Below are positions 1-17,361 of a stretch of DNA of 17,361 nt, in pieces. Within the stretch, counting starts at the first letter, position 1. Each line of letters starts with the position of its first letter. The position numbers were made by a program, and so were the translations under genes. Under the pieces are notes generated by a model that was given only the letters and a program-made list of their open reading frames with translations, ran no database searches and was not told where the DNA came from. Source of the DNA: Thermodesulfovibrionales bacterium (GTDB lineage Bacteria > Nitrospirota > Thermodesulfovibrionia > Thermodesulfovibrionales > UBA6898); contig JBIOIY010000061.1 of the NCBI GenBank assembly GCA_044450345.1, forward strand, positions 1 through 17,361, read 5' to 3'.

Positions 1-25
1 GCTTATCGCTGCAGGAGATGGAATA

Positions 26-988: not shown

Positions 989-1000
989 TAGGAGGAAATT

Positions 1001-1480: not shown

Positions 1481-1583
1481 CACTGGCCGGGATTTTGTCG
1501 GGTGCTACGGGAGCGAAATAGGGACCCCTGAATCAGGAAACAGTAGTTTACATCCGCAGCCAATCCAAAGGAGGAACATCAAC

Positions 1584-2117
1584 ATGTCTATAAAATCCGC
1601 CTTGATCATTGCCATGCTCTGCGCCGGGTTGCTCAGAGCCAGCCCGGTTCGAGCGCAACAATCTGCGCCGCCGAATCCTCTCGATACCGTACCGGAAAAG
1701 ATGCCTTTCGACATCCCTTACGGAACGCCAATATCACTCGAACGTGCCGAGTCGTCCATCGCCGCGACCGTGGCCGAAGCGAAGAGGCGTGATTGGAAGT
1801 TGTGCGTTGCCATAGTGGACTCCGGCGGGAATCTCGTCGCCTTCCAACGCATGGATGGGACGCAACTTGCCTCGATCCAGATCTCCCAGCACAAGGCGCA
1901 CGCTGCGGTGATCTTCCGTCGCGAAACAAAAGTATTCGAGAACAACATTCAGCTCGACAATCGGAACTTCGTTCTGACACTCGATGGGATGATCGGTTCA
2001 CGCGGCGGGATCCTGCTCGTCGAGGGGGGCAAGATAGTCGGCGCGATTGGGTGCTCCGGCGGGACGCCCTCGCAGGACGAGGTAGCTTGTAGAGCAGGCA
2101 CTGCGATCTTCAAGTAA
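1584..2117 (+). CDS. GlcG/HbpS (DUF336) heme-binding family protein with signal peptide
   Basis: VAIVDSGGNLVAFQRMDG, KAHAA, GGILL...GAIGCSGG..QDE motifs. Start moved to ATG 1584, which follows SD AAGGAGG and begins a signal peptide ending VRA/QQ. Confidence 0.85.
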   Translation: MSIKSALIIAMLCAGLLRASPVRAQQSAPPNPLDTVPEKMPFDIPYGTPISLERAESSIAATVAEAKRRDWKLCVAIVDSGGNLVAFQRMDGTQLASIQISQHKAHAAVIFRRETKVFENNIQLDNRNFVLTLDGMIGSRGGILLVEGGKIVGAIGCSGGTPSQDEVACRAGTAIFK

Positions 2118-2261
2118 GCCTAATCCAAGAGGAATCGAGGTCTACGCCAAAAGCGGAATGGCGCATAAGTAGTGTTCAGGACAAATGATAACCAGCTGTG
2201 CAGCAAGTCTCTTTTTTTTCGAAGCTTTCTTTCATCTGGAAATCTTGAATCATGGCATCGC

Positions 2262-2418
2262 GTCTGAGGCGTGACTTAGTGGCTGAAACAGAGGGACTCA
2301 GGTCTTTCCGAAGGTCTCATTTTCTGGGTGTATTCCTCGTGGAGTTTCGACTTATGATGACTGAGGATACGTCGGTGCTATTCGATAAAAATGCTATGGG
2401 TCGTGCCAGATGAAAGTG
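2262..2418 (-). repeat. Degenerate dispersed repeat, copy A (homologous to 8921-9063)
   Basis: Shares collinear blocks with copy B: cactttc.t.tgg.a, ccgac.tatcc.ca, cgaaactc, ataca, agaa, ttcgga and an exact 14-mer gtttcagccactaa (2276-2289, minus). Copy A has a 17-nt insertion before the 14-mer. Confidence 0.65.
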
Positions 2419-2489
2419 GCAGAAGAGCAATAGGGAAGCTTTATTGCAATCTTTATATAGTGGAGAAGGGCGGACGAGACGACGGAGCT

Positions 2490-3272
2490 TTACGGATAGT
2501 TGATCTGGAGCCTCTGAATACCGGTTGCTTTTCCGCTATCGCCACTGATCTCAATAGCGACGGCGGAAAGAATAGCGTCACCCTGAGCGGTCTCAAACTT
2601 TGCCGGCACGCTGGTCAAAAACCGCTGGATGATCTGGTTGATCTCCATCCCGATAACTGAATGGCTCGGGCCGGTCATGCCGACATCGGTTATATAGGCG
2701 GTCCCGTACGGGAGTATCTTTTCATCCGCGGTCTGCACATGGGTATGGGTGCCGATCACGGCGCTCACCCTTCCATCGACAAAATAACCGAAGGCGACTT
2801 TCTCTGATGTAGCCTCTGCATGGAAATCGACAATAATGATATCGGTCTCCCGTGAAAGTCTTTCGATCTCGGCCCGGCCTGTCCTGAAAGGGCAGTCCAT
2901 ACCGGTCATGAAAACCCTCCCAGAGATGTTCATCACTGCCGCCTTCAATCCGTTTTGGAGGGATATGACTATGCTGCCGCTCCCCGGCACGCCGGGCGGA
3001 TAGTTGAGAGGGCGCAAGACCCTGTTGTCCTTGGATATGTAAGGGATGAACTCTTTCTTGTCCCATACGTGGTTGCCCGTAGTGATGATATGGACCCCGA
3101 CCTTGAAAAGCTCGTCGACGAGCGACTCGGTAAGGCCGAAGCCGGCCGCGATATTCTCGCCGTTGGCGATGACGAAATCGATTTTATATTTGTCGACGAG
3201 GCTCGGCAGCAGGGCCTTGACAGCTGTCCTGCCGCCTTTTCCGACAATGTCACCTATGAAAAGGACTTTCAT
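2490..3272 (-). CDS. ymdB: YmdB/TIGR00282 family metallophosphoesterase
   Basis: FIGDIVG, NGEN, TGNH, DFHAEATSEK, GTHTHV and TDVGMTG motifs; conserved position downstream of rny. Confidence 0.95.
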   Translation of the reverse strand: MKVLFIGDIVGKGGRTAVKALLPSLVDKYKIDFVIANGENIAAGFGLTESLVDELFKVGVHIITTGNHVWDKKEFIPYISKDNRVLRPLNYPPGVPGSGSIVISLQNGLKAAVMNISGRVFMTGMDCPFRTGRAEIERLSRETDIIIVDFHAEATSEKVAFGYFVDGRVSAVIGTHTHVQTADEKILPYGTAYITDVGMTGPSHSVIGMEINQIIQRFLTSVPAKFETAQGDAILSAVAIEISGDSGKATGIQRLQINYP

Positions 3273-3282
3273 GTATCAAGTT

Positions 3283-3357
3283 AATAGTAAGTAGTGAGAA
3301 GTAAGTAGTAAAAGACCCTCTTTTACTTACTATTCACTATTTACTTCTTACTATTTA
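3283..3357. repeat. Inverted array of heptanucleotide repeats forming a long hairpin
   Basis: Units tagtaag/tagtgag/aagtaag/tagtaaa (3285-3312) face cttacta/ttcacta/tttactt/cttacta (3326-3353); perfect inner stem agtaaaaga-ccc-tcttttact (3307-3327). Confidence 0.85.
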
Positions 3358-3366
3358 CCCCCTGTT

Positions 3367-4929
3367 TTATTTTGCGTATTCAACATATCTCGACTCTCTT
3401 ATGACGGTCACCTTTATCTGGCCAGGATAAGACATTTCGGCCTCGATCTTCTTCGAGAGGTCCCTTGCGATCAACGACGACATCTCATCGTTGATGTCCT
3501 CCGGTTTCACGATGATCCGTATCTCTCTTCCCGCCTGGATGGCATAACACTTATCGACGCCCTTAAAGGAAAGCGCCATCTTTTCAAGTGCCTCGAGCCT
3601 CTTCAAATAGTGCTCGATACTTTCCCTGCGCACACCCGGTCTTGCCGCCGAGAGGGCGTCCGCAGCCGCAACGAGCGAGGCCTCGACCGTAATCGGGTCG
3701 CCTTCGCCATGATGTACCAGGATGGCATTTATGACCTTATTGTTTTCACTGTGTTTCCGTGCGAGATTCGCGCCGATCTCCTGGTGGGTCCCCTCGATTT
3801 CGTGGTCGACGGCCTTGCCGATATCATGGAGAAGGCCGGCCCTCTTAGCCAGTTTGGCATCGACGCCGATTTCTCCGGCCATCATCCCTGCGATGTAGGC
3901 CACCTCACGGGAATGCTGCAGCACGTTTTGGCCGTAGGAAGTCCTGTATTTCAGCCTTCCGAGAGTCTTGACGAGCTCCGGGTGGATGCCGGAAAGCCCC
4001 AGGTCGAAGACGGCCTTTTCCCCTTCTTCCCTGAGATTGATCTCCACTTCTTTTTTTACCTTTTCCACTATCTCTTCTATCCGTGTGGGATGGATGCGTC
4101 CGTCGGCGATTAGGCGCTCGAGCGAAAGCCTTGCGATCTCTCGCCGGACAGGGTCGAATGCGGAAAGTGTTACCATCTCAGGCGTATCGTCCACGATCAG
4201 GTCTACCCCGGTGGCCGCCTCGAGCGCCCTGATGTTTCTGCCTTCTCTGCCTATGATCCTGCCTTTCATTTCGTCGTTCGGAAGACTGACCGCCGTAACG
4301 GTCGCATCTGCAACATAATCGCTTGCGTACCGTTGTATTGCAGAACCCATGACCTCTTTGGCCTTCTTCTCTGCATTCTCCTTCGCCTCATCTTCGATCC
4401 TCTTGACAAGCTTTGCGATTTCGAAACGGCTGTCGTCTTCGGTGCGCCTGAGGATCTCCTGTTTCGCCTCTTCCGAGGTAATCCCGGAGAGTTTTTCGAG
4501 GACGAGGGTCTGTTCCTTCAGGAGGTTGTTGTACTTGTTCTCTTTTTCCTGTATCGTACGTTCCTTCCCGTTGTATTCTTTCTCCCTCTTGGAGAGTTCG
4601 TGATCCCGTTTGTCTACCTGATCGAATTTTCTCTCGATCGTTTCTTCCTTCTGTCTGAGCCTCTTTTCAAGATGGCCCAGTTCGGAACGTCTTTCACGCA
4701 ATTCTTTCTCCGCATCGGTCTTTGCCTGGTACACGATGTCCTTGGCCTCGAGAGACGCCTCTTTTTTTATTGATTCCGCCTCTTTGAGCGCCACATCGAC
4801 TATCTTTTTCTTTTCGGTATTGATTGAATCCCTTTGTGTCTTGAGGGCGTTTCTGTAAATAAGACTCAAGATCAGGCCGATCACGATTCCAGCGCCGACA
4901 GAGGCAAGCAGATAAACCATGTTAATCAT
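3367..4929 (-). CDS. rny: Ribonuclease Y
   Basis: N-terminal TM anchor, coiled coil, KH domain ([13 protein letters not shown]) and HD domain (LLHDIGK). Start moved to ATG 4929 (SD AAGGAGGAG 8 nt upstream), giving 520 aa; overlaps the end of rarA by 8 nt. Confidence 0.97.
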
Positions 4930-6199
4930 CAGTAGTGCTCCTCCTTTTTTGCAGCCGTGATTTAATGACCTTTTCATATCCTTCCGTGGAAGGAGTATAA
5001 AAAGATTTATGGATATGCATATAGTCCTGTTTAATGTAATGTCCGTCGAAGCTGTGAGGATACAGGTATCCCTTTCCGGCTCCCAGCCTCTTAGCCCCGG
5101 CATAGTGGGAATCCTTAAGGTGGTCGGGGACAGGCTGAACGGGTTGGGTCCTGATCTCCTCGATCGCCTTTTCTATGGCGGAACACGAGGCATTGCTCTT
5201 GGGGGCCGCGGCAACGTAGATGGCCGCCTGTGACAGCGGTATCCTGCCTTCCGGCATCCCGATCCTCTCCAGTGCCTGCATGGCGGCTACTGCCACTGCG
5301 AGCGCCTGCGGGTCTGCATTGCCGACGTCTTCCGAGGCGCAGATGACGATCCTTCGTGCAATGAAGAGCGGGTCTTCTCCTGATTCGAACATCTTCGCCA
5401 TCCAGTAGACAGCTGCGTCCGGGTCTGACCCCCGCATGCTCTTTATGAAAGCGGAGATAGTATCGTAGTGGTCATCTTCATCATAGTAGAGTGTCTTGTT
5501 CTCTAAAACCTCTTTGACATGGCGGAGGGTTATGATGCGTCCGCCTTCTCCCCCGTCACCTGAAGAAAGGAAGGCGAGTTCGAGTATATTCAGCGCCCTT
5601 CTCGCATCGCCTTCGCTCACAGAGGCGATAAAGTCTATCGCTTCGTCTTCGATAGAGGCGCGATGGTCGCCGAGGCCCCTTGTGTCTGAAAGCGCCCTCG
5701 TTACAAGCCTTTTCAGATCGTCTTTAGGTATAGGACGGAACTGAAAGATCACAGACCGCGAAGAAAGTGCCGGGACAAGTGAAAAGAAGGGGTTTTGTGT
5801 AGACGCACCGATAAGCGTCAGTTCACCGGTCTCGATATAGGGGAGGAGGGCGTCCTGCTGTATCTTATTGAAACGGTGGATCTCGTCGACAAAGAGTATT
5901 GTTTTTTCAGACCTTATCGAAGAGACCGCCTCCCTTATCTCCTTTATGCCGGCGGTGACGGCGTTTATTGAGATGAATTCCGCCCTTGTTTTTTTTGCGA
6001 TAATATGGGCGAGGGCGGTCTTGCCTGTTCCCGGCGGACCGTATAATATAACGGAGACGATCTTGTCTTCTTCTATAAGCCGTCTGAGCGGTCTGAGCGG
6101 GCCAAGCAGATGGGATTGGCCGAGGAAGTCACCGAAATCCTCAGGCTGCATGCGCCAAGCAAGCGGAGAAGTCCTTCTCTGGGTCTTAAAAAGTTCCAA
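4922..6199 (-). CDS. rarA: Replication-associated recombination protein A (RarA/MgsA AAA+ ATPase)
   Basis: Walker A GPPGTGKT, Walker [47 protein letters not shown] start. Confidence 0.95.
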
Positions 6200-6201
6200 G
6201 T

Positions 6202-6228
6202 ATCATAGTCCTCGACCGGGACTATGAT
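6202..6228 (-). promoter_or_regulatory. 10-bp hairpin covering the rarA ribosome-binding site
   Basis: Minus strand reads atcatagtcc-cggtcga-ggactatgat-ac-TTG; the SD-like GAGGA spans the loop and 3' arm, 9 nt before the TTG. Confidence 0.6.
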
Positions 6229-6402
6229 TTACGCATGACTTTTGGTGTTGGGAAAGGACTGAATGTAAATGAAAATTGTTCTTGAAAATCTATGAGATAG
6301 CCCACAAAGGAGGGCCCGGATGTGCTGTATTTTCTTTTTTCCCTGATGCTTCCACCAAAAAGTGCGAAAACCATAGCCGCCAGCTTCATCAAAAATATAT
6401 GT

Positions 6403-6579
6403 ATCCCGCCCTGTCGTGTACATGAAGAATCAGATCCGCCTATTGGATAGGTGGGTGCCGTAAAGGTGGCTTTAGGCTTTTGACACCTGGTCAACATGCA
6501 CACCGACACCTTACGCAGGCTCCCAAAAGATCTAATTTGCCGGACCAACTTTTTCATATATCACTTACAGGGCAGGTAA
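6403..6579 (-). ncRNA. ssrS: 6S RNA
   Basis: About 177-nt rod: cctgccctgt (6576-6567) pairs with acagggcggg (6414-6405); also gtg/cac, tatatgaa/ttcatgta and ggtccg/cggatc, then a central bubble. Motifs gggagcc, ggtgtgcatg, aagcctaa and ggcacccacct resemble deltaproteobacterial-type 6S (from recall). Lies upstream of rny. Confidence 0.8.
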
Positions 6580-6603
6580 TTACCCTCAATACTTCCATAT
6601 TTA

Positions 6604-6633
6604 GTTATACCAGAACAGGGACTGTTTGAGCAA
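6604..6633 (-). promoter_or_regulatory. Putative sigma70 promoter for ssrS-rarA-rny-ymdB
   Basis: TTGCTC (6633-6628), 18 nt, TATAAC (6609-6604) with an extended TG motif. Confidence 0.5.
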
Positions 6634-6805
6634 GGAAAAATTCTTTTGGCACGCGGCCTGGGTATTGTATTAATAGTTGTTTTTTAATAAACTATTGAAA
6701 TGTGTATGAATCAGCCCGGTAATAGTGTGTCTATTGGTAGTCGCGGCGGGACCCGCGGCTCACTTAAGTAAGGACAGCGCTGCACAGACGACAGGAGGTC
6801 ATATT

Positions 6806-7024
6806 ATGTTTGGTCTGGGAATGCCTGAGCTTATCGTCATCCTTATTATAATCCTCGTCCTCTTCGGGGCGAACAGGTTGCCTGAGATCGGCAGAGGCGT
6901 CGGCCAGGCGATCAAGAACTTCAAGAAGGCCACTTCAGAGCCCGACGAGATAGACGTCACACCGAAAAAAGAGGTGACGAAGGACAGCGACAAAGGAGAC
7001 GGGGAAAAGGGTAAGGGTGAATAG
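6806..7024 (+). CDS. tatA: Twin-arginine translocase subunit TatA/E
   Basis: [49 protein letters not shown]; start moved to ATG 6806. Confidence 0.95.
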
Positions 7025-8114
7025 AGGACCTCTCGCAGAGATCGACCTTTCCGCGCTTCAACACAACCTCGAAACAGTCAGAAAGATCATCGATAAAAGA
7101 CCAGTCATTGCCGTTGTCAAGGCCGATGCCTATGGACATGGCTCGGTAGAGATTGCGCGAAGGCTTGTCGGTCTGGGCGTTACTCACCTTGCGGTAGCCT
7201 ATACCGGGGAGGCGAAACTCCTCCGGGAGTCTGGTATATCTGCAGAGATCATCGTGCTTTTCGACCGGTCCGACATAGAAGATTATTTTACCTATGGGCT
7301 TGTTCCGGTCGTCCAGGACAAGGGAACGGCCCGGGAATTCGGCGTTGAGGCGGTAAAAAGGGGCAGAAGCATCCGCGTCCATATGAAGGTAGATACCGGG
7401 ATGGGGAGGATAGGGTTCATGCCCGAAAAAGCGGTATGCGATGCCGTCGAGATCTCCGGTTGGGAGGGGATAGAACTGGCGGGACTCATGAGTCATTTTT
7501 CGGAGGCCGACCTGGCTGACAGGTCCTACGCTCTGCACCAGCTGAAGCTGTTCAACGAGATAAGGAGCGCCATCTCCGCCAGGATCGGGAGGCCGCTCAT
7601 GTCCCACATCGCCAACAGCGCGGCGGTCCTCACCTTTAAAGATGCCCTGATGGATGCGGTGCGGCCGGGGCTTCTCCTCTACGGATCTTCCCCTTTTCAG
7701 GATGGGTTCGGCCTCAGGCCGTTAATGACGATAAAGACCAGGGTGCTTGCAGTGAGGAGTCTTTGTGCAGGAACGCCGGTGAGCTACGGCAGGACCTTCG
7801 TTGCAAAGAACGACTGCAAGATAGCTGTTGTCCCGGTGGGATATGCAGACGGGTACAACCGCCTTTTTTCGAATAACGGGGAGATGCTTGTCTGCGGCGG
7901 GAGGGCGCCAGTTGCCGGAAGGGTCTGCATGGACGTGACGATGCTTGACGTTACCGGAATCGGAGGCGTATGCGAGGGTGACGAGGTCGTTATTTTGGGG
8001 CGCCAGGGGAACGAAACGATCACAGCGGCCGATCTTGCCGCCAGGATCGGCACGATCTCATATGAGATACTCACGTCTCTCGGCGGGAGGTCGAGAAGGG
8101 AATATATAAATTAA
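7017..8114 (+). CDS. alr: Alanine racemase
   Basis: PLP-lysine motif [50 protein letters not shown] start overlapping tatA. Confidence 0.97.
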
Positions 8115-8133
8115 CTGACGAAGGGGGTAAATC

Positions 8134-8454
8134 ATGTCCAGACTGCCTAACCAATATGTGGGGATAGGGAAAAGGTTCAAGAAGTATTTTAATGCACTTA
8201 ACGCGCTTGGAAAGGCCGCGAAGGGCTCGGGACCGCTCGATGAAAGAATGTCCCAGCTCATACAACTTGCCGGGGCGGCGGCCGTACGGTCGGAAGGGGC
8301 AGTACATTCCCACGCGAGGAGGGCGCTCGAGGCCGGGGCAAAGCCGGAGGAACTGTACCATACCCTCCTTCTGCTTACGAGTACGATCGGCTTTCCGACT
8401 GTTTCCGCGGCGATCTCATGGATTGACGATGTCCTGGCGAAAAAGGGGCGGTGA
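8134..8454 (+). CDS. Carboxymuconolactone decarboxylase (CMD/AhpD-like) family protein without CxxC
   Basis: LDER...LIQLA, SEGAVHSHARRALEAGA..EEL and TIGFP motifs. Confidence 0.85.
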   Translation: MSRLPNQYVGIGKRFKKYFNALNALGKAAKGSGPLDERMSQLIQLAGAAAVRSEGAVHSHARRALEAGAKPEELYHTLLLLTSTIGFPTVSAAISWIDDVLAKKGR

Positions 8455-8920
8455 TTATTTTGCGGAAGTCAAAGAGGGCTTGCGATCTAAATAATATCCT
8501 CAGGACCCTCATATGCCTTTAACGCATCTTCAACGAAACAACATCCAGCTGAATGCGGAACAATCGAACTCGCAGAGTTTTTACTTGTAGACGGAAGCCC
8601 TGTAACCCGACGTTATTGCATTGTAGAAAACAAAAAAACCTTACACACTATGCGATGGTGACTATGCAAACGTGGCTATTAGGAAACCACTGCTTGGCGA
8701 TTAGCCGAAGCTTATCACCATCGTACAATGAATAAAGTTTTCTCCTAATATTTTGTTTGCACATCAGGTGGCTAATATATCTGTAATCACAATATCAGTC
8801 ATTAGAAATCTGTCAAGGACAGATATCCACAGGAGCCTTTTCAGGAAAGGGGGCGCTAAGAGAGAGTAACAGCAGGTGGGCAGGTCAGTGACATCTCTTG
8901 TAAATGGAATTAGCGACTTT

Positions 8921-9063
8921 CACTTTCTTTTGGAAGTCTTCGCTCCCCGCTTATAGCGGTGCCGAGAAGCCGACTTATCCGCACTTTCAAAAAACCGAAA
9001 CTCTATCAAGGATACAGTAAGAATAACATGTTCGGAGTTTCAGCCACTAACTTACATCATCAG
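8921..9063 (+). repeat. Degenerate dispersed repeat, copy B (homologous to 2262-2418, minus)
   Basis: By hand count, 24/34 ungapped identity over 8970-9003, 22/33 over 8996-9028 (these two blocks share cgaaactc), 12/15 at 8921-8935, and an exact 14-mer at 9037-9050. Confidence 0.65.
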
Positions 9064-9143
9064 CGAAATTGAATGTTAGTGATTATGAACGAAACGTGCC
9101 AAACAACCGCTCTTGTCTCACAGAGAGTCGCAATTCCCAAATG

Positions 9144-9172
9144 TTCCATTATGAGTTAATGAGGGGTATAAT
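9144..9172 (+). promoter_or_regulatory. Putative sigma70 promoter of the accessory membrane/lipid cluster
   Basis: TTCCAT (9144-9149), 17 nt, TATAAT (9167-9172), about 40 nt upstream of the first ORF. Confidence 0.5.
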
Positions 9173-9213
9173 GACAAAAGTAGCCAATGAGGTCGGCGCA
9201 GGGGAAAAAAGTG

Positions 9214-10011
9214 ATGGAGAGTCGATCGAATTTCCAGCTTTCAAAATGGTACATGGACTGCGTCGCGGGGGACGGAGCGGTTATTATCGCCTATTGTGCA
9301 GTGCTTCGCTGGCGGCGCCTATCTATTAATTACGCAAGTATCTTGGAACATCGTGACAGGATGGGGACAACGATGAACACTTCGCTGCGAAGGCATCCCT
9401 TGCCAAAAGTGATAGGCCCGGCGCTTTTCTGGAATTCGCATCGTTTAGGGATTGAAGGGAGATGGAAAGCCCTTTCTTCTCCCCTTCACAGGACACTGTT
9501 TGAGTCGGATCAGGGGATAGTAGAATGGCACTGTTACCAGCCTCAGTCTGAAGTTTCTATTCAGATTTCTCCTAATACTTCCATTCTCGGTTACGGATAT
9601 GCCGAGCACCTCCTGATGACCATCAAGCCCTGGGAACTGCCCATTGAAGAATTGAGATGGGGCAGGTTTGTTTCCAAGAGGGATAGCCTTGTTTGGATAG
9701 ACTGGAGAGGCCAGTCGCCTCAAAGCCTTGTGTTCTATAATGGCGTTCAAATAGGACATGCCTCTGTCGGTGATCGCAATATCGTTCTTGATGAGGGGAA
9801 GACGAGTCTATCTTTTGAGGAAAGCATCGTATTGCGCGAGGGCTTCCTCTTTTCCAACGTGCTTCACATGATTCGGGTTTTCAGAAAGATTCTGCCTGCG
9901 CGTTTTCTGCAGACTTACGAGTGCAAATGGCGTAGTCGTGGGATTTTGAGAAGTGGGCAATTTATATCAAGTACTGGCTGGGTAATTCATGAGGTGGTAA
10001 AATTTGGCTAA
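9214..10011 (+). CDS. Hypothetical Trp-rich beta-strand protein, tentatively CrtC/AttH/tocopherol-cyclase-like fold
   Basis: Long ORF without signal or TM segments; KWYMDCV, GYGYAE and LRWGRF resemble the W-Y-x-D, G-x-G-Y-x-[DE] and W-x-W-G-R motifs of CrtC/AttH-like barrels. Alternative starts at 9187 and 9211. Confidence 0.55.
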   Translation: MESRSNFQLSKWYMDCVAGDGAVIIAYCAVLRWRRLSINYASILEHRDRMGTTMNTSLRRHPLPKVIGPALFWNSHRLGIEGRWKALSSPLHRTLFESDQGIVEWHCYQPQSEVSIQISPNTSILGYGYAEHLLMTIKPWELPIEELRWGRFVSKRDSLVWIDWRGQSPQSLVFYNGVQIGHASVGDRNIVLDEGKTSLSFEESIVLREGFLFSNVLHMIRVFRKILPARFLQTYECKWRSRGILRSGQFISSTGWVIHEVVKFG

Positions 10012-10082
10012 GAGGGGAATATCAAGGGCATTTTTGGCCAACGAAGTCTTTCCAAAGAAGAAGAAACGCGAGAAGTTCGAAG

Positions 10083-10712
10083 ATGCCTCCTGAACTCATC
10101 CTTGAGACAAAAAGCATAAAAAAGTTCTTCGGCCATCACAGGGTACTCGAAGATATCACCTTTCAGATGGGGCAAGGTCAGATAGTCGGGATCGTGGGCG
10201 AGAACGGTTCGGGGAAGAGCACACTCCTCAAAATCCTCGCTGGTCTTCTACCGCCGACTTCGGGTGAGTTGCACATAGAGGGCCGCGTCGGATTCTGTCC
10301 GCAGGACCCATTACTCTTCGAGACCCTGACGGTGAGGGAGAATTTCCGATATTTCGCTACTGCCTACGGATTGGACAAAACCGGTACCATGCCTCTTTGG
10401 GAATCTGTGAAGAGGGAGTTGTTGGACCGATTCCATTTCTATCATTATGAAAATAGAATTGTCTCGGAGTTGAGCGGAGGGACGAAGCAGAAATTGAACC
10501 TTTCCCTGGCGCTTCTTCACTCGCCCGACACGGTACTTCTCGATGAACCGTATTCGGGATTTGACTGGGAGACCTATCTCAATTTCTGGCAGTATGCTGA
10601 AGAACAGAGGTCAAAGGGGAAGGGTATTATAGTCGTCACACATTTTGTGTACGAGCGAGCTAAATTCGACACCCTCTTTGAGCTGAAAGAAGGCATCCTA
10701 CGATGCGTATGA
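10083..10712 (+). CDS. ABC transporter ATP-binding protein (exporter type)
   Basis: Walker A GENGSGKST, Q-loop CPQ, signature LSGGTKQK, Walker B VLLDEP, H-loop VTH. Confidence 0.93.
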   Translation: MPPELILETKSIKKFFGHHRVLEDITFQMGQGQIVGIVGENGSGKSTLLKILAGLLPPTSGELHIEGRVGFCPQDPLLFETLTVRENFRYFATAYGLDKTGTMPLWESVKRELLDRFHFYHYENRIVSELSGGTKQKLNLSLALLHSPDTVLLDEPYSGFDWETYLNFWQYAEEQRSKGKGIIVVTHFVYERAKFDTLFELKEGILRCV

Positions 10713-11467
10713 GCTACATCAGAACTTCCACCATGATGACGGGAAAAGACCTTTTGCGGAATCGAATCGCAGTGATTCTCTTCCTGCTGATCCCAAGTCT
10801 TTTCTTTGCACTCATTATATTGACCACGTCGGAGCGACCCATTTTCTTTAAACTGGCCTCCGTTTCCGGGGAGACACTTCTTCAAGTGAGCGAAAGAAAA
10901 GAGGCTCTGATTTTTATCGGCCTCGCCGCCACTGGGCTCATATCTTCGTTTCTCGGTCTAAACCTCCTTCAAGAGCACTCCGGAGTTGATCGCAGGCTAG
11001 TCCTGTGCGGATATAGCACATCGGAATTGATAGTCTCGAAGCTCGTTGTTTTGCTATGCGTTATTTTAATCACAGGAGTTTATGTCGCATCGATGATTCT
11101 GGTGTCTTTTCAACCCCGCCATTTTCTACAGATGATCTCCGGTTTCATTCTGGGTGGATTCGTATACGGATGCTATGGGTTACTCGTTGGTACGATTTTC
11201 AAAAAGGAACTGGAAGGCATCCTCTTCATTGTCCTCTTAGCCAACATCGACGCAGGATGGTTGCAAAACCCGATCTACTATGCTGAGGCGCAGAACAAAG
11301 CAATTATTCGAAGCTTACCCGCTTATTTCCCGTCACAGGCGAGTATGGCCGCTGCCTTTACTGATCATTCGGTCATCAATCCCTTAATGCGGGGGATAAT
11401 TTATGGGATTGTTCTCCTGTTCGTCGCTCTCTTTATTTATTGGAGGAGAATGGGCATCAGGAAATGA
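10703..11467 (+). CDS. ABC-2 type exporter permease
   Basis: About six hydrophobic segments, DRRLVLCGYS coupling loop, overlap with the ATPase stop; alternative ATG at 10709. Confidence 0.8.
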   Translation: MRMSYIRTSTMMTGKDLLRNRIAVILFLLIPSLFFALIILTTSERPIFFKLASVSGETLLQVSERKEALIFIGLAATGLISSFLGLNLLQEHSGVDRRLVLCGYSTSELIVSKLVVLLCVILITGVYVASMILVSFQPRHFLQMISGFILGGFVYGCYGLLVGTIFKKELEGILFIVLLANIDAGWLQNPIYYAEAQNKAIIRSLPAYFPSQASMAAAFTDHSVINPLMRGIIYGIVLLFVALFIYWRRMGIRK

Positions 11468-11507
11468 AGGTTGAATATAAAGATCGTTGGCTGAGGAGAA
11501 AGTTCTA

Positions 11508-13442
11508 ATGGATAAGACATACACACAGATAATTGAAAAAATTCTTTACGCCTTTTTATTTCTGATCGTTTTGCCCGCTTCACTCATTCTCTGGGCACGG
11601 GCAACCGCAGGGTGTGTGCCACTCCTCGTTGTTGGGTCTTTTCAGATCGGCGCTGTTCTCGCCATCTGCGGCGCAGTCATCATGATTACAGGCATGGTAG
11701 CACTCTCGGCATATGGTAACGGACTTCCCATGAGCCCATTCCCTCCTTCCCGCTATGTAACCGAGGGCATTTACGGTTTCATGCCCCATCCAATTTACTC
11801 GGGCTTTTCGCTTCTCTGCGTCGGCACTGCTATGGCTGCAAAATCAGCAAGTGGTTTATGGCTTGTATCGCCGATTGTGATCTTGGCTTGCACTGCCTGG
11901 GTGCTTGGGTTCGAAAGAGATAGTCTGCGAAGGCGTTTCGGGTCTCTTATAACGAAAGCTTTTATCCACCTTCCCGAAGATAAAGCGAGTGCACCGACCC
12001 TCGCGGACCGGTTATCGGTGTACGTTCTGGTTTTCTTTCCCTGGCTTATCCTTTATCAAGCGGTTCGGATTTTTGGGATTCCTCCCGATGCGCACATTGC
12101 CTTCTTCTCTTTTGAGATCGATTTGCCGGTCTATGAATGGACAGAAGTCTTTTATATAAGCACGTATCCTTACGTTCTCTTGGCTCCATTGGCAGCTAAG
12201 AAAATGCATGATCTCCGGAAGTTTTCAATATCCGGATTGATAGCGACCGGAATAATCATTCCGTTATTTCTTATCGTTCCCCTGATCGCTCCACCGCGAC
12301 CGTTTACTCCCAACAGCTTTTTGGGAAATCTTCTAGCTTTGGAGCGGGTATTCGACACTCCAGCCGCTGCTTTTCCCTCTTTCCATGTTTTCTGGGCACT
12401 GCTCGCCGCATCCGTATACGCTGAGGCCAAGCCTTCTTGGAGGATATTTTGGTGGGGATGGGCATTCATAATCGTTGTAAGCTGTATAACCACGGGCATG
12501 CACGCCCTGGTGGATGTACTTGCAGGAGCGGTCGCCTTTTTGTTCGTTTTACATATAGATAAGATATGGGAAAAGATCCTATTAATTGTGGAGGGTATAG
12601 CGAATTCATGGAGGGAGTGGCGTTTTGGCTCTGTCCGGTTAATCAACCACGGAATATACGCTGGCATCGGTTCATTTCTCGGACTTTCTTTAGTCGGGGT
12701 GTTACTTGGCCAAGGGTATATCGCCCCATCCCTTATTGTCGCCCTGTCATCGGTCATCATATCGGCTCTTTGGGCCCAGTTTATTGAGGGATCGGCCGTT
12801 CTGCTGCGGCCATATGGTTATTACGGCGGTGTGTTCGGCGTTGTTTTAGGCTCGCTGATAGCGAAATGGGTCGGAGCAGATGTGTGGCTATTGCTCGCTG
12901 CTTTCAGCGTCGCGGGTCCATGGATTCAGGCCTTTGGCAGATTGCGCTGCCTGGTGCAGGGATGCTGCCACGGCCGCGAGGCATCGAGGGAAATCGGAAT
13001 CCGTTATGTCCATCCGCGCTCGCGCGTCACGCAGATTGCAGGGCTCACGGACATCCCTATTCATCCGACACCTTTATACTCGATACTCTGGAACATCGTT
13101 GTCGGGCTTATCATGGCGCGCCTGTGGTCACTTCACTCACATCCCCCTTTCATCGGAGGATTATATTTGATATTGACGGGGCTTGGAAGGTTTGTCGAAG
13201 AAAATTACCGCGGAGAACCGCAGACCCGCATTTTATGGGGACTCCGTCTTTATCAGTGGCTCGCCGTTGGCGCGGTCATTGCGGGTGCTATCGTTACCAC
13301 TGTCCATTATCGCGTTGAGGTGCCATCGCCAATGTTCAATTGGAAGTCTGTTATGGTGGCGGCGTGCGTCGGCATTCTAACGTTTTTTGCCTTTGGAGCT
13401 GATTTTCCTAATTCGAAGAAACGCTTCTCCCGGCTGGTTTAG
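11508..13442 (+). CDS. Three-domain polytopic membrane protein: PEMT/ICMT-like + PAP2/AUR1-like + Lgt-like
   Basis: N-terminal GNGLPMSPFPP..YVTEGIYGFMPHPIY and ERDSLRRRFG; central APPRP, AFPSFH and SCITTGMHALVDVLAG; C-terminal YYGG, GRLRCLVQGCCHG, HPTPLYS and RFVEENYRGEP. ATG 11508 preferred (SD GAGGAG at 11493-11498). Confidence 0.8.
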   Translation: MDKTYTQIIEKILYAFLFLIVLPASLILWARATAGCVPLLVVGSFQIGAVLAICGAVIMITGMVALSAYGNGLPMSPFPPSRYVTEGIYGFMPHPIYSGFSLLCVGTAMAAKSASGLWLVSPIVILACTAWVLGFERDSLRRRFGSLITKAFIHLPEDKASAPTLADRLSVYVLVFFPWLILYQAVRIFGIPPDAHIAFFSFEIDLPVYEWTEVFYISTYPYVLLAPLAAKKMHDLRKFSISGLIATGIIIPLFLIVPLIAPPRPFTPNSFLGNLLALERVFDTPAAAFPSFHVFWALLAASVYAEAKPSWRIFWWGWAFIIVVSCITTGMHALVDVLAGAVAFLFVLHIDKIWEKILLIVEGIANSWREWRFGSVRLINHGIYAGIGSFLGLSLVGVLLGQGYIAPSLIVALSSVIISALWAQFIEGSAVLLRPYGYYGGVFGVVLGSLIAKWVGADVWLLLAAFSVAGPWIQAFGRLRCLVQGCCHGREASREIGIRYVHPRSRVTQIAGLTDIPIHPTPLYSILWNIVVGLIMARLWSLHSHPPFIGGLYLILTGLGRFVEENYRGEPQTRILWGLRLYQWLAVGAVIAGAIVTTVHYRVEVPSPMFNWKSVMVAACVGILTFFAFGADFPNSKKRFSRLV

Positions 13443-13768
13443 GTATGCGATAAAGATGACACTAAAAGGCAGAAGATTTTACTTCGGAAGCCGTGAAGGC
13501 AAGCATTAAACAAACGCCCCTTGCGAATCAAATATCTTCATTTAGGGTTGGAAGCGTTACTGCTAAGGAGAAGGCTTCTCTAAAGGATATAGGGAGAATG
13601 CGTGAAAAATTGTTCCTTCCGGTGTGTATTTGTTGGAGGAAGGACATCACATTTTACATCTACCTCTTTCGAGAGTAGATGATTAACGGTAAAGAGAGTG
13701 CATGAGGGGAATGGACACCAAGTTATGAAATGCGTTTACAACACCTGTAAACAGAAATGCCGTCTACA

Positions 13769-13972
13769 TTATACTCTCTTTTTCTTTAAACCCAATTCTT
13801 CAGCTACGATATTAAATGCACGCCCCTTTTGATTGCGAGGATCAGATTTTGCTCGACGCAGTTCCAATAAATCGTGATAGTCTTCTAACTCTTCCTGCAT
13901 ACGCACAAAGTCTTTATAAGGGATCACAGCAAATTGTTTTTTGCCTTGTTTCTCAATGATCTGAGCTTCCAT
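13769..13972 (-). CDS. Putative type II antitoxin (RelB/Phd-like)
   Basis: 67 aa with FAVIPYKDF..MQEELEDYHDL and acidic core; ATG directly follows the toxin stop (TAAATG). Confidence 0.7.
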   Translation of the reverse strand: MEAQIIEKQGKKQFAVIPYKDFVRMQEELEDYHDLLELRRAKSDPRNQKGRAFNIVAEELGLKKKRV

Positions 13973-14221
13973 TTATCTATAGGCCTCCTTTCGATGAAGA
14001 ATTCGGTAAATTATAATCTTGTTTGTAGAAACTTCGAATAGCACACGCCAAACACCAACCCGTAGTCGATACTCAGGTGTATGATTCGTTAGTTTCTTTA
14101 TCTTTCCCGTAAGTCCATTTTCCAAAGCAAAAATTGCATCTGCGATTTTTTGAGCATCGGGCTTCGAAAGAGATGCCAAATCTTTTTCGGCCCGTTTGCG
14201 AATTTCTAATTCATATCGCAT
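13973..14221 (-). CDS. RelE/ParE family toxin
   Basis: 82-aa basic protein with IKKL, YRLRVGVWRVLF and ILHRKEAYR. Confidence 0.9.
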   Translation of the reverse strand: MRYELEIRKRAEKDLASLSKPDAQKIADAIFALENGLTGKIKKLTNHTPEYRLRVGVWRVLFEVSTNKIIIYRILHRKEAYR

Positions 14222-14227
14222 GGATTT

Positions 14228-14233
14228 ATTATA
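14228..14233 (-). promoter_or_regulatory. -10 box 6 nt upstream of the toxin ATG (probable leaderless transcript)
   Basis: Minus strand reads cggTATAATaaatccATG; no SD. Confidence 0.6.
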
Positions 14234-14480
14234 CCGCAGAACCTTTTAGAAAATGGAATGGGGTTTACCGAAAACACCGTGCTGACGATAAGATCAACTC
14301 GTCCGGCTGTTCGACCTGTTTATCTTCTCTTCAACAACACTTCTTTTTTTCACATACTGATGCCTCATCTAAGGCATTTTTTTCTCATAGCTCGATGACC
14401 CGATTTAGCTGCTCCGCGCTCAGCGGGGCAACGCTTAAAAGACTCCTGACTTTAATCCGATAGATAGGTTAAAATTGCTG

Positions 14481-16031
14481 GTGTCACTGAGTGAATGCAA
14501 TAACATATTGGTGAGAGGTGTTAACTGGATCGGCGATGCGGTAATGACGATGCCGGCATTGAGGGCGCTCAGACTTGCCAACCGGTCTTCGAGGATAACG
14601 CTGCTGGTAAAACCATGGGTCGCTCCGCTGTTCGAGAAGGACCCGAATATAGACGAGATCATGCTTTATTCGGACGAATATCAGGGCATTTCGGGAAGGA
14701 TCAAACTCTCAAAAAAACTCAGGAGACAGGGTTTCTGTGCTGCACTTCTTCTTCAAAACGCGTTCGATGCCGCCCTCGTCACAACGCTTGCAGGGATCCC
14801 TGAAAGGGTCGGGTATGGCAGGGACGCGAGGGGGTTCCTTCTCACAAAGGCTATCCGCGTTGATGGCCTGACAAAGGGTCTTCACCATATTGACTATTAC
14901 CTCAACCTCTTATCAAAGGCCGGATTGCCCGCAGTGAAAGCCTTGCCCTGGATTTATCTTCAGATTGAAGAACGGTTTGGAGCGAGGGATATGTTAAAAG
15001 ATCTGAAGCGGCCGGTCGTCGCGATCAACCCTGGGGCAGCATATGGGTCTTCGAAGAGATGGCACCCGGAGAGATTTGCCGAGGTCGCAATGAAAGTCAT
15101 CGATGACCTCAGCGGCAGCGTGCTGGTCTTGGGAGGGCCGTCTGAGGCGTCTATCGCAGATGAGATATGTAAAGTTTTAAACGGTTCACTTTCTAATGCG
15201 TTATATTCAGAGCGTGTCTTGTCTGTTGCCGGTAAGACGGACCTGCGTCAATTGGCGGCCCTGATCTCGGAGTGCGACCTTTTAGTGACCAACGATTCGG
15301 GTCCAATGCATATAGGATATGCCGTGGGCACCCCTCTTGTCGCGGTGTTCGGCTCTACGTCGTCTGATCACACGGGCCCCGTAGGCGAAGGTAACCGGGT
15401 GGTCAGAAAAGATATTGAGTGCGCCCCTTGCTATGAAAGGACCTGCAGACGCGGGGATTTGAAGTGCATGGACCTTATTACCGCCGATGAGGTATTCGAA
15501 CCGGTAAGAAGTCTTATGAGCCATCATAGGGCGGTATTCTTCGACAGGGACGGCACGCTCTGCAGAGATGCCGAGTATCTTAACAGGATGGAAGACCTTG
15601 AAATCTTCGGGAAGATTGATGCGCTGAAGAAGCTCAGGGAAAAGGGGTTCTCCCTGATCGGCGTTTCAAACCAGTCTGGGGTTGCAAGGGGAGTTGTGGA
15701 AGTAGAGTTCGTGAGAAAGGTGAACAGGCTCTTTATAGATGAATACGGGTTCGATGATTTTTATTACTGCCCGCACCATCCCGACGAACATTGTTCCTGC
15801 AGAAAGCCCGAGCCTGGACTCCTCTATCGGGCAAGGGCGGAGCATAACATCGACCTGAGGGCATCTTACGTAGTCGGTGATAAAGAGGCGGATCTACTCC
15901 TTGCCAGATCGGTCGGCGCGAAGGCAATTCTTGTAAGGACGGGAAAGGATGAGACTTCTCCTTACGCGGATTTTGTCGCGGAAGATCTTGAAGCGGCCGC
16001 AGGTTTTATCCTCGGAGCGAGCGGCGGATAG
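14481..16031 (+). CDS. waaF: LPS heptosyltransferase II (GT9) fused to heptose-1,7-bisphosphate phosphatase (GmhB, HAD)
   Basis: ILVRGVNWIGDAVM, NPGAAYGSSKRW and TNDSGPMH, then from about 15516 AVFFDRDGTL, SNQSG, CPHHP..CSCRKP and VGD in the same frame. Start is GTG 14481 or TTG 14475. Confidence 0.9.
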   Translation: MSLSECNNILVRGVNWIGDAVMTMPALRALRLANRSSRITLLVKPWVAPLFEKDPNIDEIMLYSDEYQGISGRIKLSKKLRRQGFCAALLLQNAFDAALVTTLAGIPERVGYGRDARGFLLTKAIRVDGLTKGLHHIDYYLNLLSKAGLPAVKALPWIYLQIEERFGARDMLKDLKRPVVAINPGAAYGSSKRWHPERFAEVAMKVIDDLSGSVLVLGGPSEASIADEICKVLNGSLSNALYSERVLSVAGKTDLRQLAALISECDLLVTNDSGPMHIGYAVGTPLVAVFGSTSSDHTGPVGEGNRVVRKDIECAPCYERTCRRGDLKCMDLITADEVFEPVRSLMSHHRAVFFDRDGTLCRDAEYLNRMEDLEIFGKIDALKKLREKGFSLIGVSNQSGVARGVVEVEFVRKVNRLFIDEYGFDDFYYCPHHPDEHCSCRKPEPGLLYRARAEHNIDLRASYVVGDKEADLLLARSVGAKAILVRTGKDETSPYADFVAEDLEAAAGFILGASGG

Positions 16032-16053
16032 TCCGTAAGTAGCTATGGGGAAA

Positions 16054-16062
16054 TGGTATACT
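16054..16062 (+). promoter_or_regulatory. Extended -10 element upstream of waaC
   Basis: TGgTATACT followed by aaatc and GTG 16068. Confidence 0.5.
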
Positions 16063-16067
16063 AAATC

Positions 16068-17117
16068 GTGTCCGGCGCACCAACTCATACGATATCGTTA
16101 GTGAAAACCCCGAAAAAAATCCTGATCGTCAAGCCGAGTTCCCTGGGCGACGTTGTGCACAGTCTCCCGTTTCTTTGTTCGATGAAATCCTGTTTCCCGA
16201 GGTCCGAAATCCATTGGGTCATCGCAAAGGGACTGGAGGGGCTGCTGGATGGAAATCCGATGATCAACAGGCTTATCGTCATTAATAAGGATGTCTGGAA
16301 GAAGATTTCGCACGCAGCTGATACGGTGCGGGAGGTAAGGAGGCTTTTTAAAGAAATCAGGGAGGAACGATACGATCTGGTGGTAGACCTGCAGGGACTT
16401 CTGAGGAGCGGCATCATCACGATGGCCTCCAGCGCCCCTGCGAGGATCGGGTTTACAGAGGCCAGGGAAGGCAGCAGTTTTTTTTATACCGATAAGGTAA
16501 GGGGAGGGAAGGGCCTGCATGCTGTCGATAGGTACATGAAGATCGCCGTTGCGCTGGGGTGTGAAAAGGTTGGAGCCGTCTTCCCGTTCCCCCCTTTTAA
16601 GAACGGAGATTCGTGGGTGAGGTCGTTCAAGAGGGACCTAAAGGAATATGTCGTTATTGTCCCGGGGGCGAGGTGGGAGACCAAGATCTGGCCTGCAGAG
16701 AATTTTGGTAAAGTTGCTTCCCTGCTCCCTGTGCGTTCCGTGGTGGTCGGAAGCAGCGCGGATATAGGGATTGGGGAAAAGATTGTCTCATCTTCCCGCG
16801 GCAGGGCGGTATCAGTGGCCGGGAAAACGACCCTCACGGAACTGATCGAAATAATGAAGGGGGCGAGGCTTGCTATATCGAACGATTCAGGCCCGATGCA
16901 CATTGCCGCTGCCTTCGGCGTTCCGGTAGTTGCCATATTCGGGCCTACGAGTCCGGAGAGGACGGGGCCATACGGAAGTTCTCATGTAATTATAAGAAGC
17001 GGCGCTGCCTGTGCCCCTTGCTTCAAAAAAAAATGCGCGGATTTGAAGTGCATGAAAGAAGTCACGCCTGAAGAGGTTGGTAAGAGGGTAAGGGAGTTTT
17101 TTGGAGCTTTGAAATAA
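16068..17117 (+). CDS. waaC: LPS heptosyltransferase I-like (GT9)
   Basis: KILIVKPSSLGDVVHSLP, DLQGLLRS, SNDSGPMHIAAA, FGPT; adjacent to waaF; alternative GTG start at 16101. Confidence 0.8.
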   Translation: MSGAPTHTISLVKTPKKILIVKPSSLGDVVHSLPFLCSMKSCFPRSEIHWVIAKGLEGLLDGNPMINRLIVINKDVWKKISHAADTVREVRRLFKEIREERYDLVVDLQGLLRSGIITMASSAPARIGFTEAREGSSFFYTDKVRGGKGLHAVDRYMKIAVALGCEKVGAVFPFPPFKNGDSWVRSFKRDLKEYVVIVPGARWETKIWPAENFGKVASLLPVRSVVVGSSADIGIGEKIVSSSRGRAVSVAGKTTLTELIEIMKGARLAISNDSGPMHIAAAFGVPVVAIFGPTSPERTGPYGSSHVIIRSGAACAPCFKKKCADLKCMKEVTPEEVGKRVREFFGALK

Positions 17118-17152
17118 ACCCCGTGAGAAGATATTGGACCTTCTCACGGGGT
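17118..17152. terminator. Perfect 13-bp inverted repeat after waaC (terminator or REP-like)
   Basis: accccgtgagaag, 9-nt loop, cttctcacggggt; no U-tract on the plus strand. Confidence 0.6.
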
Positions 17153-17361
17153 AAATCACGGGCACCCCGGACGTCTGTTAAGTACTTACGAAACCGCGCA
17201 ATTTTTAAAACTATATCGCTCATCATCAGCGTCCGACTGTTTTTTGCATAAAGCAATATAACTCATTGAAAGAATAATATAATAATGACATTTCGACCTG
17301 TTACCGACTTGAAATATTTTCAGCCAGTCGGTCATCGTTCCGGGGACACCCGGAAGGAGAC

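Follow-up and report, generated by a model that had tools for sequence, protein, structure and literature searches.

Prolipoprotein diacylglyceryl transferase (Lgt) is regarded as an antibiotic target and as an enzyme of a single purpose, facing the periplasm. Phosphatases of the PAP2 type are recognized by the motif KxxxxxxRP, which holds the C1 lysine, and by SRxxxxxHxxxD, which holds the C3 arginine, and PAP2 enzymes with the topology of LPP and SMS have both termini on the side of the membrane opposite to the active site. For E. coli Lgt, the structural study (PMC4728403) puts arm-1, the head and the active site in the periplasm, describes the periplasmic face as acidic, has Y26, E202 and Y235 contacting bound phosphatidylglycerol in the crystal, and records the H103A, H103N, H103Q, H103R and H103Y variants as inactive. 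Enzymes of the AttH family are described, in a preprint (bioRxiv 10.1101/2025.10.20.683597), as hydrating isoprene double bonds to tertiary alcohols, including those in archaeal membrane-lipid tails; for CrtC, a study gives the catalytic residues as His239, Trp241, Tyr266 and Asp268 (PMC4717167). Here we describe a locus in which these folds are brought together. The stretch analyzed, hereafter the window, comprises the 17,361 nucleotides (nt) of contig JBIOIY010000061.1 (assembly GCA_044450345.1, positions 1 to 17,361, forward strand) from a Thermodesulfovibrionales bacterium (genome G000 below), and it encodes a three-domain membrane enzyme, whose C-terminal domain has an Lgt fold, and, upstream of it, a soluble partner with an AttH/CrtC-like fold. 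We put at about even the chances that the two constitute an undescribed membrane-lipid tailoring module, its enzyme being composed of a methyltransferase, a PAP2_3 domain that would act as an Aur1/SMS-like lipid phosphotransferase or phosphatase, and an Lgt fold that would derive from a Cys-type branch of Lgt. The features on which the argument turns are these:

9214-10011, + strand: partner, a soluble protein of about 265 amino acids (aa) with a two-beta-barrel AttH/CrtC-like fold and no signal peptide, from its AlphaFold2 (AF2) model and synteny
11508-13442, + strand: three-domain membrane enzyme, 644 aa; alternative TTG start at 11487
11508-11957, + strand: ICMT/PEMT-fold domain of the enzyme, residues 1-150, four transmembrane helices, with GIYxxxxHPIYxGF and invariant E136
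11784-11798, + strand: PHPIY (HPIY at 11787-11798), in the ICMT/PEMT part
11907-11918, + strand: GFER, in the ICMT/PEMT part
12000-12557, + strand: PAP2_3 domain, residues 165-350, six transmembrane helices, with PPRP (R264), PSFH (H293) and SC....H...D (C326, H332, D336)
12288-12302, + strand: APPRP, in the PAP2 part
12375-12386, + strand: PSFH, in the PAP2 part
12480-12515, + strand: SCITTGMHALVD, in the PAP2 part, holding H...D
12570-13316, + strand: Lgt-fold domain of the Cys type, residues 355-603, with an amphipathic helix, the arm-1 hairpin and seven transmembrane helices
12819-12830, + strand: YYGG, in the Lgt part
12936-12974, + strand: GRLRCLVQGCCHG, the Cys-type signature of the Lgt part
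13062-13079, + strand: HPTPLY, in the Lgt part
13188-13211, + strand: RFVEENYR, in the Lgt part
13341-13439, + strand: eighth transmembrane helix (residues 612-630) and basic tail GxDFPxSxxRFxRL (residues 630-644, at 13395-13439)

The functional unit is a two-gene module, made up of the enzyme and its cytoplasmic AttH/CrtC-fold partner. With each GTDB species represented by one genome, 528 stretches proved to encode a relative of the enzyme, and the best 80 of these serve for all the locus comparisons below. By tblastn, 74 of the 80 loci have a partner homologue immediately 5' of the enzyme gene and on its strand. Among the 6 exceptions, L005 and L077 have no upstream DNA, L017 has a divergent copy of the partner upstream of its own ABC (ATP-binding cassette) pair, L062 has a distant copy elsewhere in the genome, and only in L065 and L069 was no partner found. 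When the 733 open reading frames (ORFs) of the 80 loci were clustered, the enzyme was recovered in 77 loci and the partner, by the clustering rule, in 62, and no third conserved neighbour emerged, the next ORF cluster being present in 7 loci. Moreover, a profile search with the partner among 1.84 billion representatives (1358 relatives at E<=0.001, 737 at E<=1e-30) returned, among the 150 relatives listed, two long proteins that join both genes in a single chain: P0484 (906 aa), in which residues 4-263 are the partner and residues 267-905 the whole enzyme, 40% identical to that of the window, and P0399 (854 aa), a partner-enzyme fusion of the same kind. These natural fusions show that partner and enzyme are functionally tied, with the partner on the N-terminal side.

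The partner gene is open from an ATG at 9187, and the ATG at 9214 is favored by the modal length of 265 aa and by an AGGGGA Shine-Dalgarno sequence; the public gene call (P0242, 212 aa) lacks about 50 N-terminal residues, including an invariant KWYxD strand. Its AF2 model (pLDDT 93.9, pTM 0.89) aligns over 229-246 of 274 residues, at VIA Z 16.6-22.5, with Fsa2/CghA/Phm7, 25-phosphosteroid lyase, AttH (2ich) and kievitone hydratase, while the next unrelated fold reaches Z 6.4, and Foldseek places its AttH/CrtC-fold matches at E 1e-7 to 8e-9. Like the described enzymes of this fold (7a0q, 9fzn, 2ich, Fsa2/CghA/Phm7 and the archaeal hydroxy-GDGT synthase Hgs), it has both beta-barrels; however, it is some 100 residues shorter than the solved members, shares only 8-10% identity with them, and has an invariant residue set of its own (K20, W21, Y22, D24, Y36, W114, C116, Y138, W158 and E269). 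Neither Pfam nor NCBIfam has a model that matches the partner, and among six members of its family no CrtC or AttH model matched at E<=10, the one match obtained being to the unrelated MPM1 at E 0.21; the only lead to CrtC at the sequence level is a neighbouring Atlas cluster in which 11% of members have CrtC_C. The predicted complex of enzyme and partner scored 0.00 in a run without controls, a value that counts neither for nor against binding. An earlier note on this DNA had dealt with the enzyme and had missed both this conserved partner and the probable inversion of the Lgt fold taken up below, which are the features that point to a new function.

The enzyme gene has a GAGGAG Shine-Dalgarno sequence about 9 nt 5' of the ATG at 11508, and its public-collection entry (P0001) is the same 644-aa form. 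Numbered on the 651-aa form that begins at the TTG, Pfam matches cover residues 54-152 for PEMT (35.4 bits, cut-off 25), 219-353 for PAP2_3 (54 bits, cut-off 27) and 444-604 for LGT (76.4 bits, cut-off 24.9), the last taking in profile positions 85-238 of 240 only; the PAP2 model also matches, at 30.4 bits (cut-off 27.2). The earlier note had divided the protein into ICMT-like, PAP2 and Lgt-like parts. All the motifs that it quoted were recovered where it had put them, and its domain ranges fit the structural alignments, which place the ICMT fold at residues 11-150, the PAP2 fold at 144/151-350 and the Lgt fold at 355-603. The division itself thus stands, with PEMT, PAP2_3 and LGT above their Pfam cut-offs, the PAP2 and Lgt folds matched and an ICMT fold suggested. 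The ICMT model of Pfam scores 17.9 bits, under its cut-off of 24. The AF2 model of the whole enzyme, from a 27-sequence alignment, has pLDDT 79.4 and pTM 0.77, and the Atlas offers one for this sequence with pTM 0.90. No usable PDB sequence match was obtained with the enzyme, its family profile or the partner profile, and the PADLOC defence models matched neither protein.

The enzyme is intact and under selection. Conservation was read from 27 homologues at 39-67% identity, with which a 120-sequence alignment agrees. The residues invariant among the 27 are H94, P95, I96, Y97, G99, F100 and E136 in the ICMT/PEMT part; R264, F289, P290, F292, S325, C326, H332 and D336 in the PAP2 part; G440, R478, R480, C481, Q484, G485, C486, C487, H488 and G489 in the Lgt part, followed there by H519, Y524, S525, R561 to E565, and R568; and A628, G630, D632, F633, P634, S636, R639, F640, R642 and L643 at the C-terminus, where the tail and the eighth helix have no counterpart in canonical Lgt. 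S291, H293 and Y439 are kept in 90% or more. The motif substitutions noticed at the outset are therefore not private to this sequence, being retained across both the 27 and the 120 homologues, and since the altered motifs are conserved across the family, the enzyme is not decaying.

For the central domain, the nearest described structures are those of Aur1, inositol phosphorylceramide (IPC) synthase and SMSr (9ivc, 9vj4 and 8ijq/8ijr), which share its six-helix PAP2 fold at Z 11.4-13.0. Over residues 144/151-350, VIA gives Z 13.0 for SMSr (8ijr), 12.7 for IPC synthase (9vj4) and 12.3 for Aur1 (9ivc), against 11.4 for the phosphatase LpxE and 9.7-10.0 for PgpB (8bm3, Z 10.0). Human LPP1 (9l0i, VIA Z 9.4) aligns across residues 144-350 with all six PAP2 helices. 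As in the phosphotransferases, the catalytic His-His-Asp triad is kept (H293, H332, D336) and neither the C1 lysine nor the C3 arginine of the phosphatases is present: V257 stands at the position of the former, and the invariant S325-C326 replaces SR, with R264-P265 retained. The suggestion that this part looks more like Aur1/IPT phosphotransferases than classic phosphatases is accordingly upheld in the form that it resembles the former at least as much as the latter, by Pfam (54 bits for PAP2_3 vs 30 for PAP2) and by fold (Z 12.3-13.0 vs 9.7-11.4). The likeness has its limits: identity to the solved phosphotransferases is only 10-15%, the PAP2 phosphatases match nearly as well, and nothing in the sequence reveals a specificity for ceramide or for a headgroup.

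The N-terminal domain is probably an S-adenosylmethionine (SAM)-dependent methyltransferase of the ICMT/PEMT type (PF04140 and PF04191 being the family Pfams). It passes the PEMT cut-off, its GxYxxxxHPxYxG-type motif and the first glutamate are invariant across the enzyme family, and residues 11-150 match ICMT (5vg9) at VIA Z 8.7 over 127 aligned residues and Ma-ICMT (4a2n) at Z 6.6. In contrast to the known enzymes, it has four helices only, and its fold match to them is no better than that to a sterol reductase (4quv, Z 8.1), a fold common to both families, as the earlier note had cautioned. S-methylation of thiols by ICMT-family enzymes is a familiar idea; a literature search on MddA and isoprenylcysteine gave no match.

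The C-terminal domain contains the entire Lgt fold. Residues 355/366-603 align with 219-226 residues of E. coli Lgt (5azb/5azc) at VIA Z 15.0-15.1 (for 5azb, residues 366-603 against chain 11-286, 219 aligned residues, root-mean-square deviation 3.6), and since the alignment spans chain positions 3/11-286, all seven helices are present despite the partial Pfam match. The domain nonetheless fails the NCBIfam equivalog TIGR00544 (41.4 bits, cut-off 118.9). Where E. coli has HGG the fused domain has a nearly invariant Y439-G-G, and when it is set against the signature G142-R-L-G-N-F-I-N-G-E-L-W-G154, R143 and G154 are kept but N146 has become Cys, N149 Gln and E151 Cys. The earlier note had read these changes as a sign of new substrates. 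That was not borne out, because the same signature occurs in a full-length stand-alone Lgt of the same genome that passes the equivalog. G000, a genome 91% complete, has three LGT matches, and the two besides the fusion are separate, full-length lgt genes (Pfam 274 and 222 bits), the presence of a canonical copy having been one of the checks proposed. One is canonical (FHGG and GRLGNFINGELYG; TIGR00544 251.8 bits; match to 5azb at E 7e-69); the other (L002:1495-2268, on contig C47) has FYGG and GRLGCFCAGCCYG and still scores 158 bits against the cut-off of 118.9. An LGT match is present in 19 of 21 related genomes, and in G044, G035, G163 and G165, which are 97-100% complete, the sole match is of the FYGG and GRLGCF..GCC[YH]G type. 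Judged from these gene contents, Cys-type Lgt is evidently a natural branch that does the housekeeping Lgt job in the four genomes; the textbook residues H103, N146 and E151 would thus not be universal in functional Lgts, and the YGG and Cys changes by themselves imply no new substrate. The branch, for which the best NCBIfam model is NF000778, has L002 and L098-L102 as stand-alone examples, and the fused domain shares with them both YGG and GR..C....GCC.G. Two divergent Cys-type Lgt-like paralogues were also seen, L109 in G122 (280 aa, Pfam LGT 85.5 bits) and L111 in G090 (369 aa, 38.9 bits); L109 is without equivalents of H196, Y201 and E202.

What sets the fused domain apart from Lgts of either type lies elsewhere. 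Equivalents of R143, G154, H196, Y201, R239, E243 and R246 are all retained, the last three as the invariant R561, E565 and R568 of transmembrane helix 6. The residues that contact phosphatidylglycerol in E. coli are not: Y26 is replaced by His in 11/12 fusion domains, E202 by Ser in 12/12, and Y235 by Thr, Asn or Ser in 12/12, whereas 21/22 stand-alone Lgts of both types have Y (or a gap), E and Y at these positions. Unlike Lgt, moreover, the domain is C-terminal to two other enzyme domains, carries the additional eighth helix and basic tail, is patchily distributed as an accessory gene, and is predicted to lie inverted in the membrane.

The case for inversion combines the described topologies of Lgt and PAP2 enzymes with the helix layout of the model. 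The latter consists of four N-terminal helices, a charged linker (residues 137-164), the six PAP2 helices, which the LPP1 and SMSr alignments support, and a charged amphipathic helix (350-365), followed by the arm-1 hairpin, the Lgt helices, the eighth helix and the conserved basic tail. The amphipathic helix, which cannot span the membrane, is the sole link between the ten preceding transmembrane helices and arm-1. With this layout the PAP2 and Lgt-fold sites would face opposite sides, and the ICMT motif loop, the linker, arm-1, the Lgt head, loop L6-7 and the tail all fall on the predicted cytoplasmic side. Across 120 homologues the loops of that side average 26.8 Lys plus Arg and those of the opposite side 4.9; within the Lgt-fold domain the values are 17.3 for the head-side loops and 0.6 for those of the opposite side, and all 120 homologues follow this pattern. 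The two stand-alone Lgts of G000 have the opposite one (13 on the cytoplasmic and 6-7 on the periplasmic side). The natural fusions, moreover, place a soluble domain without a signal peptide before the first helix, which fits a cytoplasmic N-terminus and supports the topology. Helix counts, fold alignments, positive-inside loop charges and the natural N-terminal fusion together lead to the prediction that the Lgt-fold domain lies inverted: its cavity would open to the cytoplasm, as would the methyltransferase site, and the PAP2 site would face the periplasm. Two consequences would follow. Direct channelling from the PAP2 site to the Lgt fold, which the earlier note had suggested in the form of diacylglycerol release feeding the Lgt-like part, becomes unlikely if the sites lie on opposite faces; and an enzyme with a cytoplasm-facing cavity could not serve exported prolipoproteins.

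A mechanism compatible with this arrangement can be sketched. At the inner leaflet, the Lgt-fold domain would take an alkyl group or a diacylglyceryl group from a donor of the phospholipid type and attach it to a nucleophile, which might be a thiol, and the ICMT/PEMT domain would then methylate the product. At a tertiary carbon of the lipid tail, the partner would add water or phosphate or remove it. The lipid would next be flipped, for which the ABC-2 exporter with its genes between those of partner and enzyme is the probable candidate in the window, and at the outer leaflet the PAP2_3 domain would perform a phospho-headgroup step, so that the product of the module would be a modified membrane lipid. 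The exporter genes are the following:

10083-10712, + strand: ABC transporter ATPase, DrrA/NodI-like (Pfam ABC_tran 102 bits; NCBIfam drrA subfamily 123.7 bits, under its cut-off)
10703-11467, + strand: ABC-2 type permease (Pfam ABC2_membrane_3 33.5 bits)

The genes for permease and ATPase share 10 nt, and 40 nt separate the end of the former from the ATG of the enzyme.

Several observations weigh against a lipid-tailoring module so conceived. Every chemical step of the scheme is inference on our part, and the sidedness on which it depends comes from prediction by helix counting, fold alignment and the positive-inside rule. Confidence in the enzyme model is lowest for the N-terminal domain (pLDDT 47-86), whose Z of 8.7 is one that helical bundles can attain by chance. 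In addition, neither the arginine of RHPxY nor the second glutamate of EE, both features of the known ICMT/PEMT enzymes, is conserved (the residue before HP varies and is Pro here; that after E136 varies and is Arg here), and hence the use of SAM is no more than probable. LGT and PEMT stand together without a Pfam PAP2 match in Atlas clusters of 523-584 aa and in P0399, so that some lineages may do without the PAP2 step or have it in degenerate form; the same variants suggest that methyltransferase and Lgt fold are the constant core. The ABC pair lies between partner and enzyme in the window and in only 2 of the 80 loci (L073 and L017, with permease orthologues 57-59% identical), and export is therefore not general to the module. 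Finally, there is no SQS_PSY gene in 8 of 36 module-bearing genomes, nor in the 91%-complete assembly of G000, so that the partner cannot in general act on a carotenoid or on squalene. A carotenoid, squalene or hopanoid link for the partner had been considered and was dropped, the co-occurrence of SQS_PSY and of the cyclase being uninformative: an SQS_PSY gene is present in 28/36 module genomes and in 143/151 genomes of a phylum sample, which is no enrichment, and a full-length squalene-hopene cyclase in 2/36. G000 itself has such a cyclase (contig C2:199224-200171, - strand; 476 bits on the C-terminal domain model, in a 677-aa frame).

The neighbourhood and the partner fold raise the question of whether the substrates are isoprenoid. 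On this account, which we consider unlikely but with a real claim to attention, the module acts not on glycerophospholipids but on polyprenyl or isoprenoid lipids such as carrier-lipid phosphates, quinone tails or squalene-type chains, the PAP2 domain handling a prenyl (di)phosphate, the Lgt fold transferring a prenyl-type alkyl group and the partner hydrating a terminal isoprene. The fold family of the partner does perform chemistry on isoprenes and tertiary carbons (kievitone hydratase, 25-phosphosteroid lyase, CrtC, archaeal Hgs), but it also holds polyketide pericyclases. The central fold is matched by PAP2 enzymes of the PgpB type (8bm3), whose substrate is C55-PP, and E202 and Y235, of the glycerol pocket for phosphatidylglycerol, are replaced. 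A Pfam scan of the 81 same-strand ORFs among 146 flanking ORFs, with opposite-strand ORFs left out, brought up a UbiA-family prenyltransferase directly upstream of the partner, on the same strand, at 7 loci (L024, L026, L032, L034, L036, L038 and L040); all seven, however, are labelled Bryobacterales, Bryobacteraceae or Solibacter, a single clade, and may reflect lineage synteny. The counts for SQS_PSY, no commoner in module genomes than in the phylum sample, and for the cyclase, found full-length in only two of the 36, also tell against isoprenoid substrates.

Thiol chemistry offers a different route. Lgt S-alkylates cysteine, and ICMT methylates an S-lipidated C-terminal cysteine; a cytoplasm-facing Cys-type Lgt fold together with an ICMT/PEMT domain might then be a bacterial lipidation-then-methylation machine, which either S-alkylates and methylates a cytoplasmic thiol, so making a new class of thioether, phosphorus-free membrane lipid, or performs a CaaX-like modification of protein cysteine, with the partner tailoring the tail and the PAP2_3 domain finishing or recycling the headgroup outside. 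We regard this as quite unlikely. Its strictly protein-directed form would be the bacterial counterpart of prenylation plus ICMT: on the cytoplasmic side, the cysteine of a protein or peptide, possibly Cys116 of the partner, would first receive a lipid from the enzyme and would then be methylated by it. This form is improbable. Such a form would account for the constancy of the LGT and PEMT pair in the Atlas variants, for the prediction of both sites on the same cytoplasmic face and for the invariant W114-x-C116 of the partner, but no conserved substrate gene with a C-terminal cysteine lies nearby (80 loci, 81 flanking ORFs), the partner ends in HEVVxW and not in Cys, its many conserved polar residues are those of an enzyme and not of a passive substrate, and Pfam favors PEMT, a lipid N-methyltransferase, over ICMT. 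That the protein is an ordinary prolipoprotein diacylglyceryl transferase with two accessory domains, serving exported lipoproteins, is very improbable, despite public annotations that read prolipoprotein diacylglyceryl transferase (family protein), the complete fold (Z 15.1), the retained R143, G154, R239, E243 and R246 and a Cys-type signature compatible with real Lgt function. The failure against TIGR00544, the replaced Y26, E202 and Y235, the loop charges that reverse those of real Lgts, the two full-length lgt genes that G000 already has, and the accessory distribution (1/151 genomes of its own phylum, 3/151 of another) all speak against it. We give next to no credence to a decaying or artefactual fusion without a function of its own: several textbook motif residues are indeed altered, but the frame is open, identities of 39-67% with invariant motif residues extend across many phyla, the two-gene structure is kept and the Atlas model reaches pTM 0.90, and the conservation data already refute decay.

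The membrane-lipid tailoring module, as we read it, is thus a new, conserved combination of known folds with an apparently inverted Lgt fold, which the databases label by its domains only. Full-text literature searches found no paper on this fusion architecture, and the accessible part of the Lipocone paper (PMC12419801) names Lgt only in another context. Its significance would be threefold. An accessory module that is widespread (the 528 GTDB stretches, almost all metagenome-only) has taken over the Lgt fold and apparently placed it the other way round in the membrane. The two-gene cassette and its natural single-chain fusions are concrete targets for lipidomics, and a new lipid class could emerge in phyla whose unusual membrane lipids serve as environmental biomarkers. 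Apart from the fusion, the Cys-type branch, in which H103 is Tyr and N146 and E151 are Cys, changes that would be inactivating by the logic of E. coli, matters for annotation and for inhibitor design.

In a word-index search, 2297 of 8000 scored candidates were relatives of the enzyme at E<=1e-3; the best 120 are 587-691 aa long, all with LGT and most with PAP2_3 and PEMT. The best 80 loci, all from metagenome-assembled genomes, come from Acidobacteriota, Bacteroidota, Ignavibacteria, Chlorobi, Nitrospirota, Gemmatimonadota, Myxococcota, Desulfobulbales, Zixibacteria and Methylomirabilota. Of 151 genomes sampled from the phylum of the window, 1 was found to have the gene, namely G000, and a sample of 151 from the phylum to which a Bacteroidota-labelled carrier belongs yielded it in 3; the module is thus patchy and accessory, and it may have been acquired horizontally in the genome of the window. 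A search for split or shorter forms with the Lgt part gave 629 matches, mainly fragments on contigs of about 1 kb, a few of them being on long contigs (P0171, P0193, P0217 and P0224).

Around the module, the minor themes of the flanking scan were the UbiA genes already described and peptidase M64 (5 loci). In the window an ORF-poor stretch of about 730 nt (8455-9186) precedes the partner gene; Rfam found no riboswitch or other RNA in this leader, and promoter and terminator scans there were at or near chance. Further upstream, a full-length 6S/SsrS RNA lies at 6399-6581 on the - strand (RF00013, 71.7 bits, gathering threshold 46.4), and the 111-aa ORF that overlaps it (6222-6557, - strand) is unlikely to be a gene. 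On the other side, immediately 3' of the module, are a ParE-family toxin ORF (13973-14221, - strand, Pfam 39.7 bits) and, after it on the same strand, a 67-aa ORF (13769-13972) that is an antitoxin candidate. Beyond these, a 518-aa ORF (14475-16031, + strand) encodes a heptosyltransferase (Glyco_transf_9) fused to a HAD-type phosphatase domain, and it is followed by a second gene of the same glycosyltransferase family, GT9, at 16068-17117.

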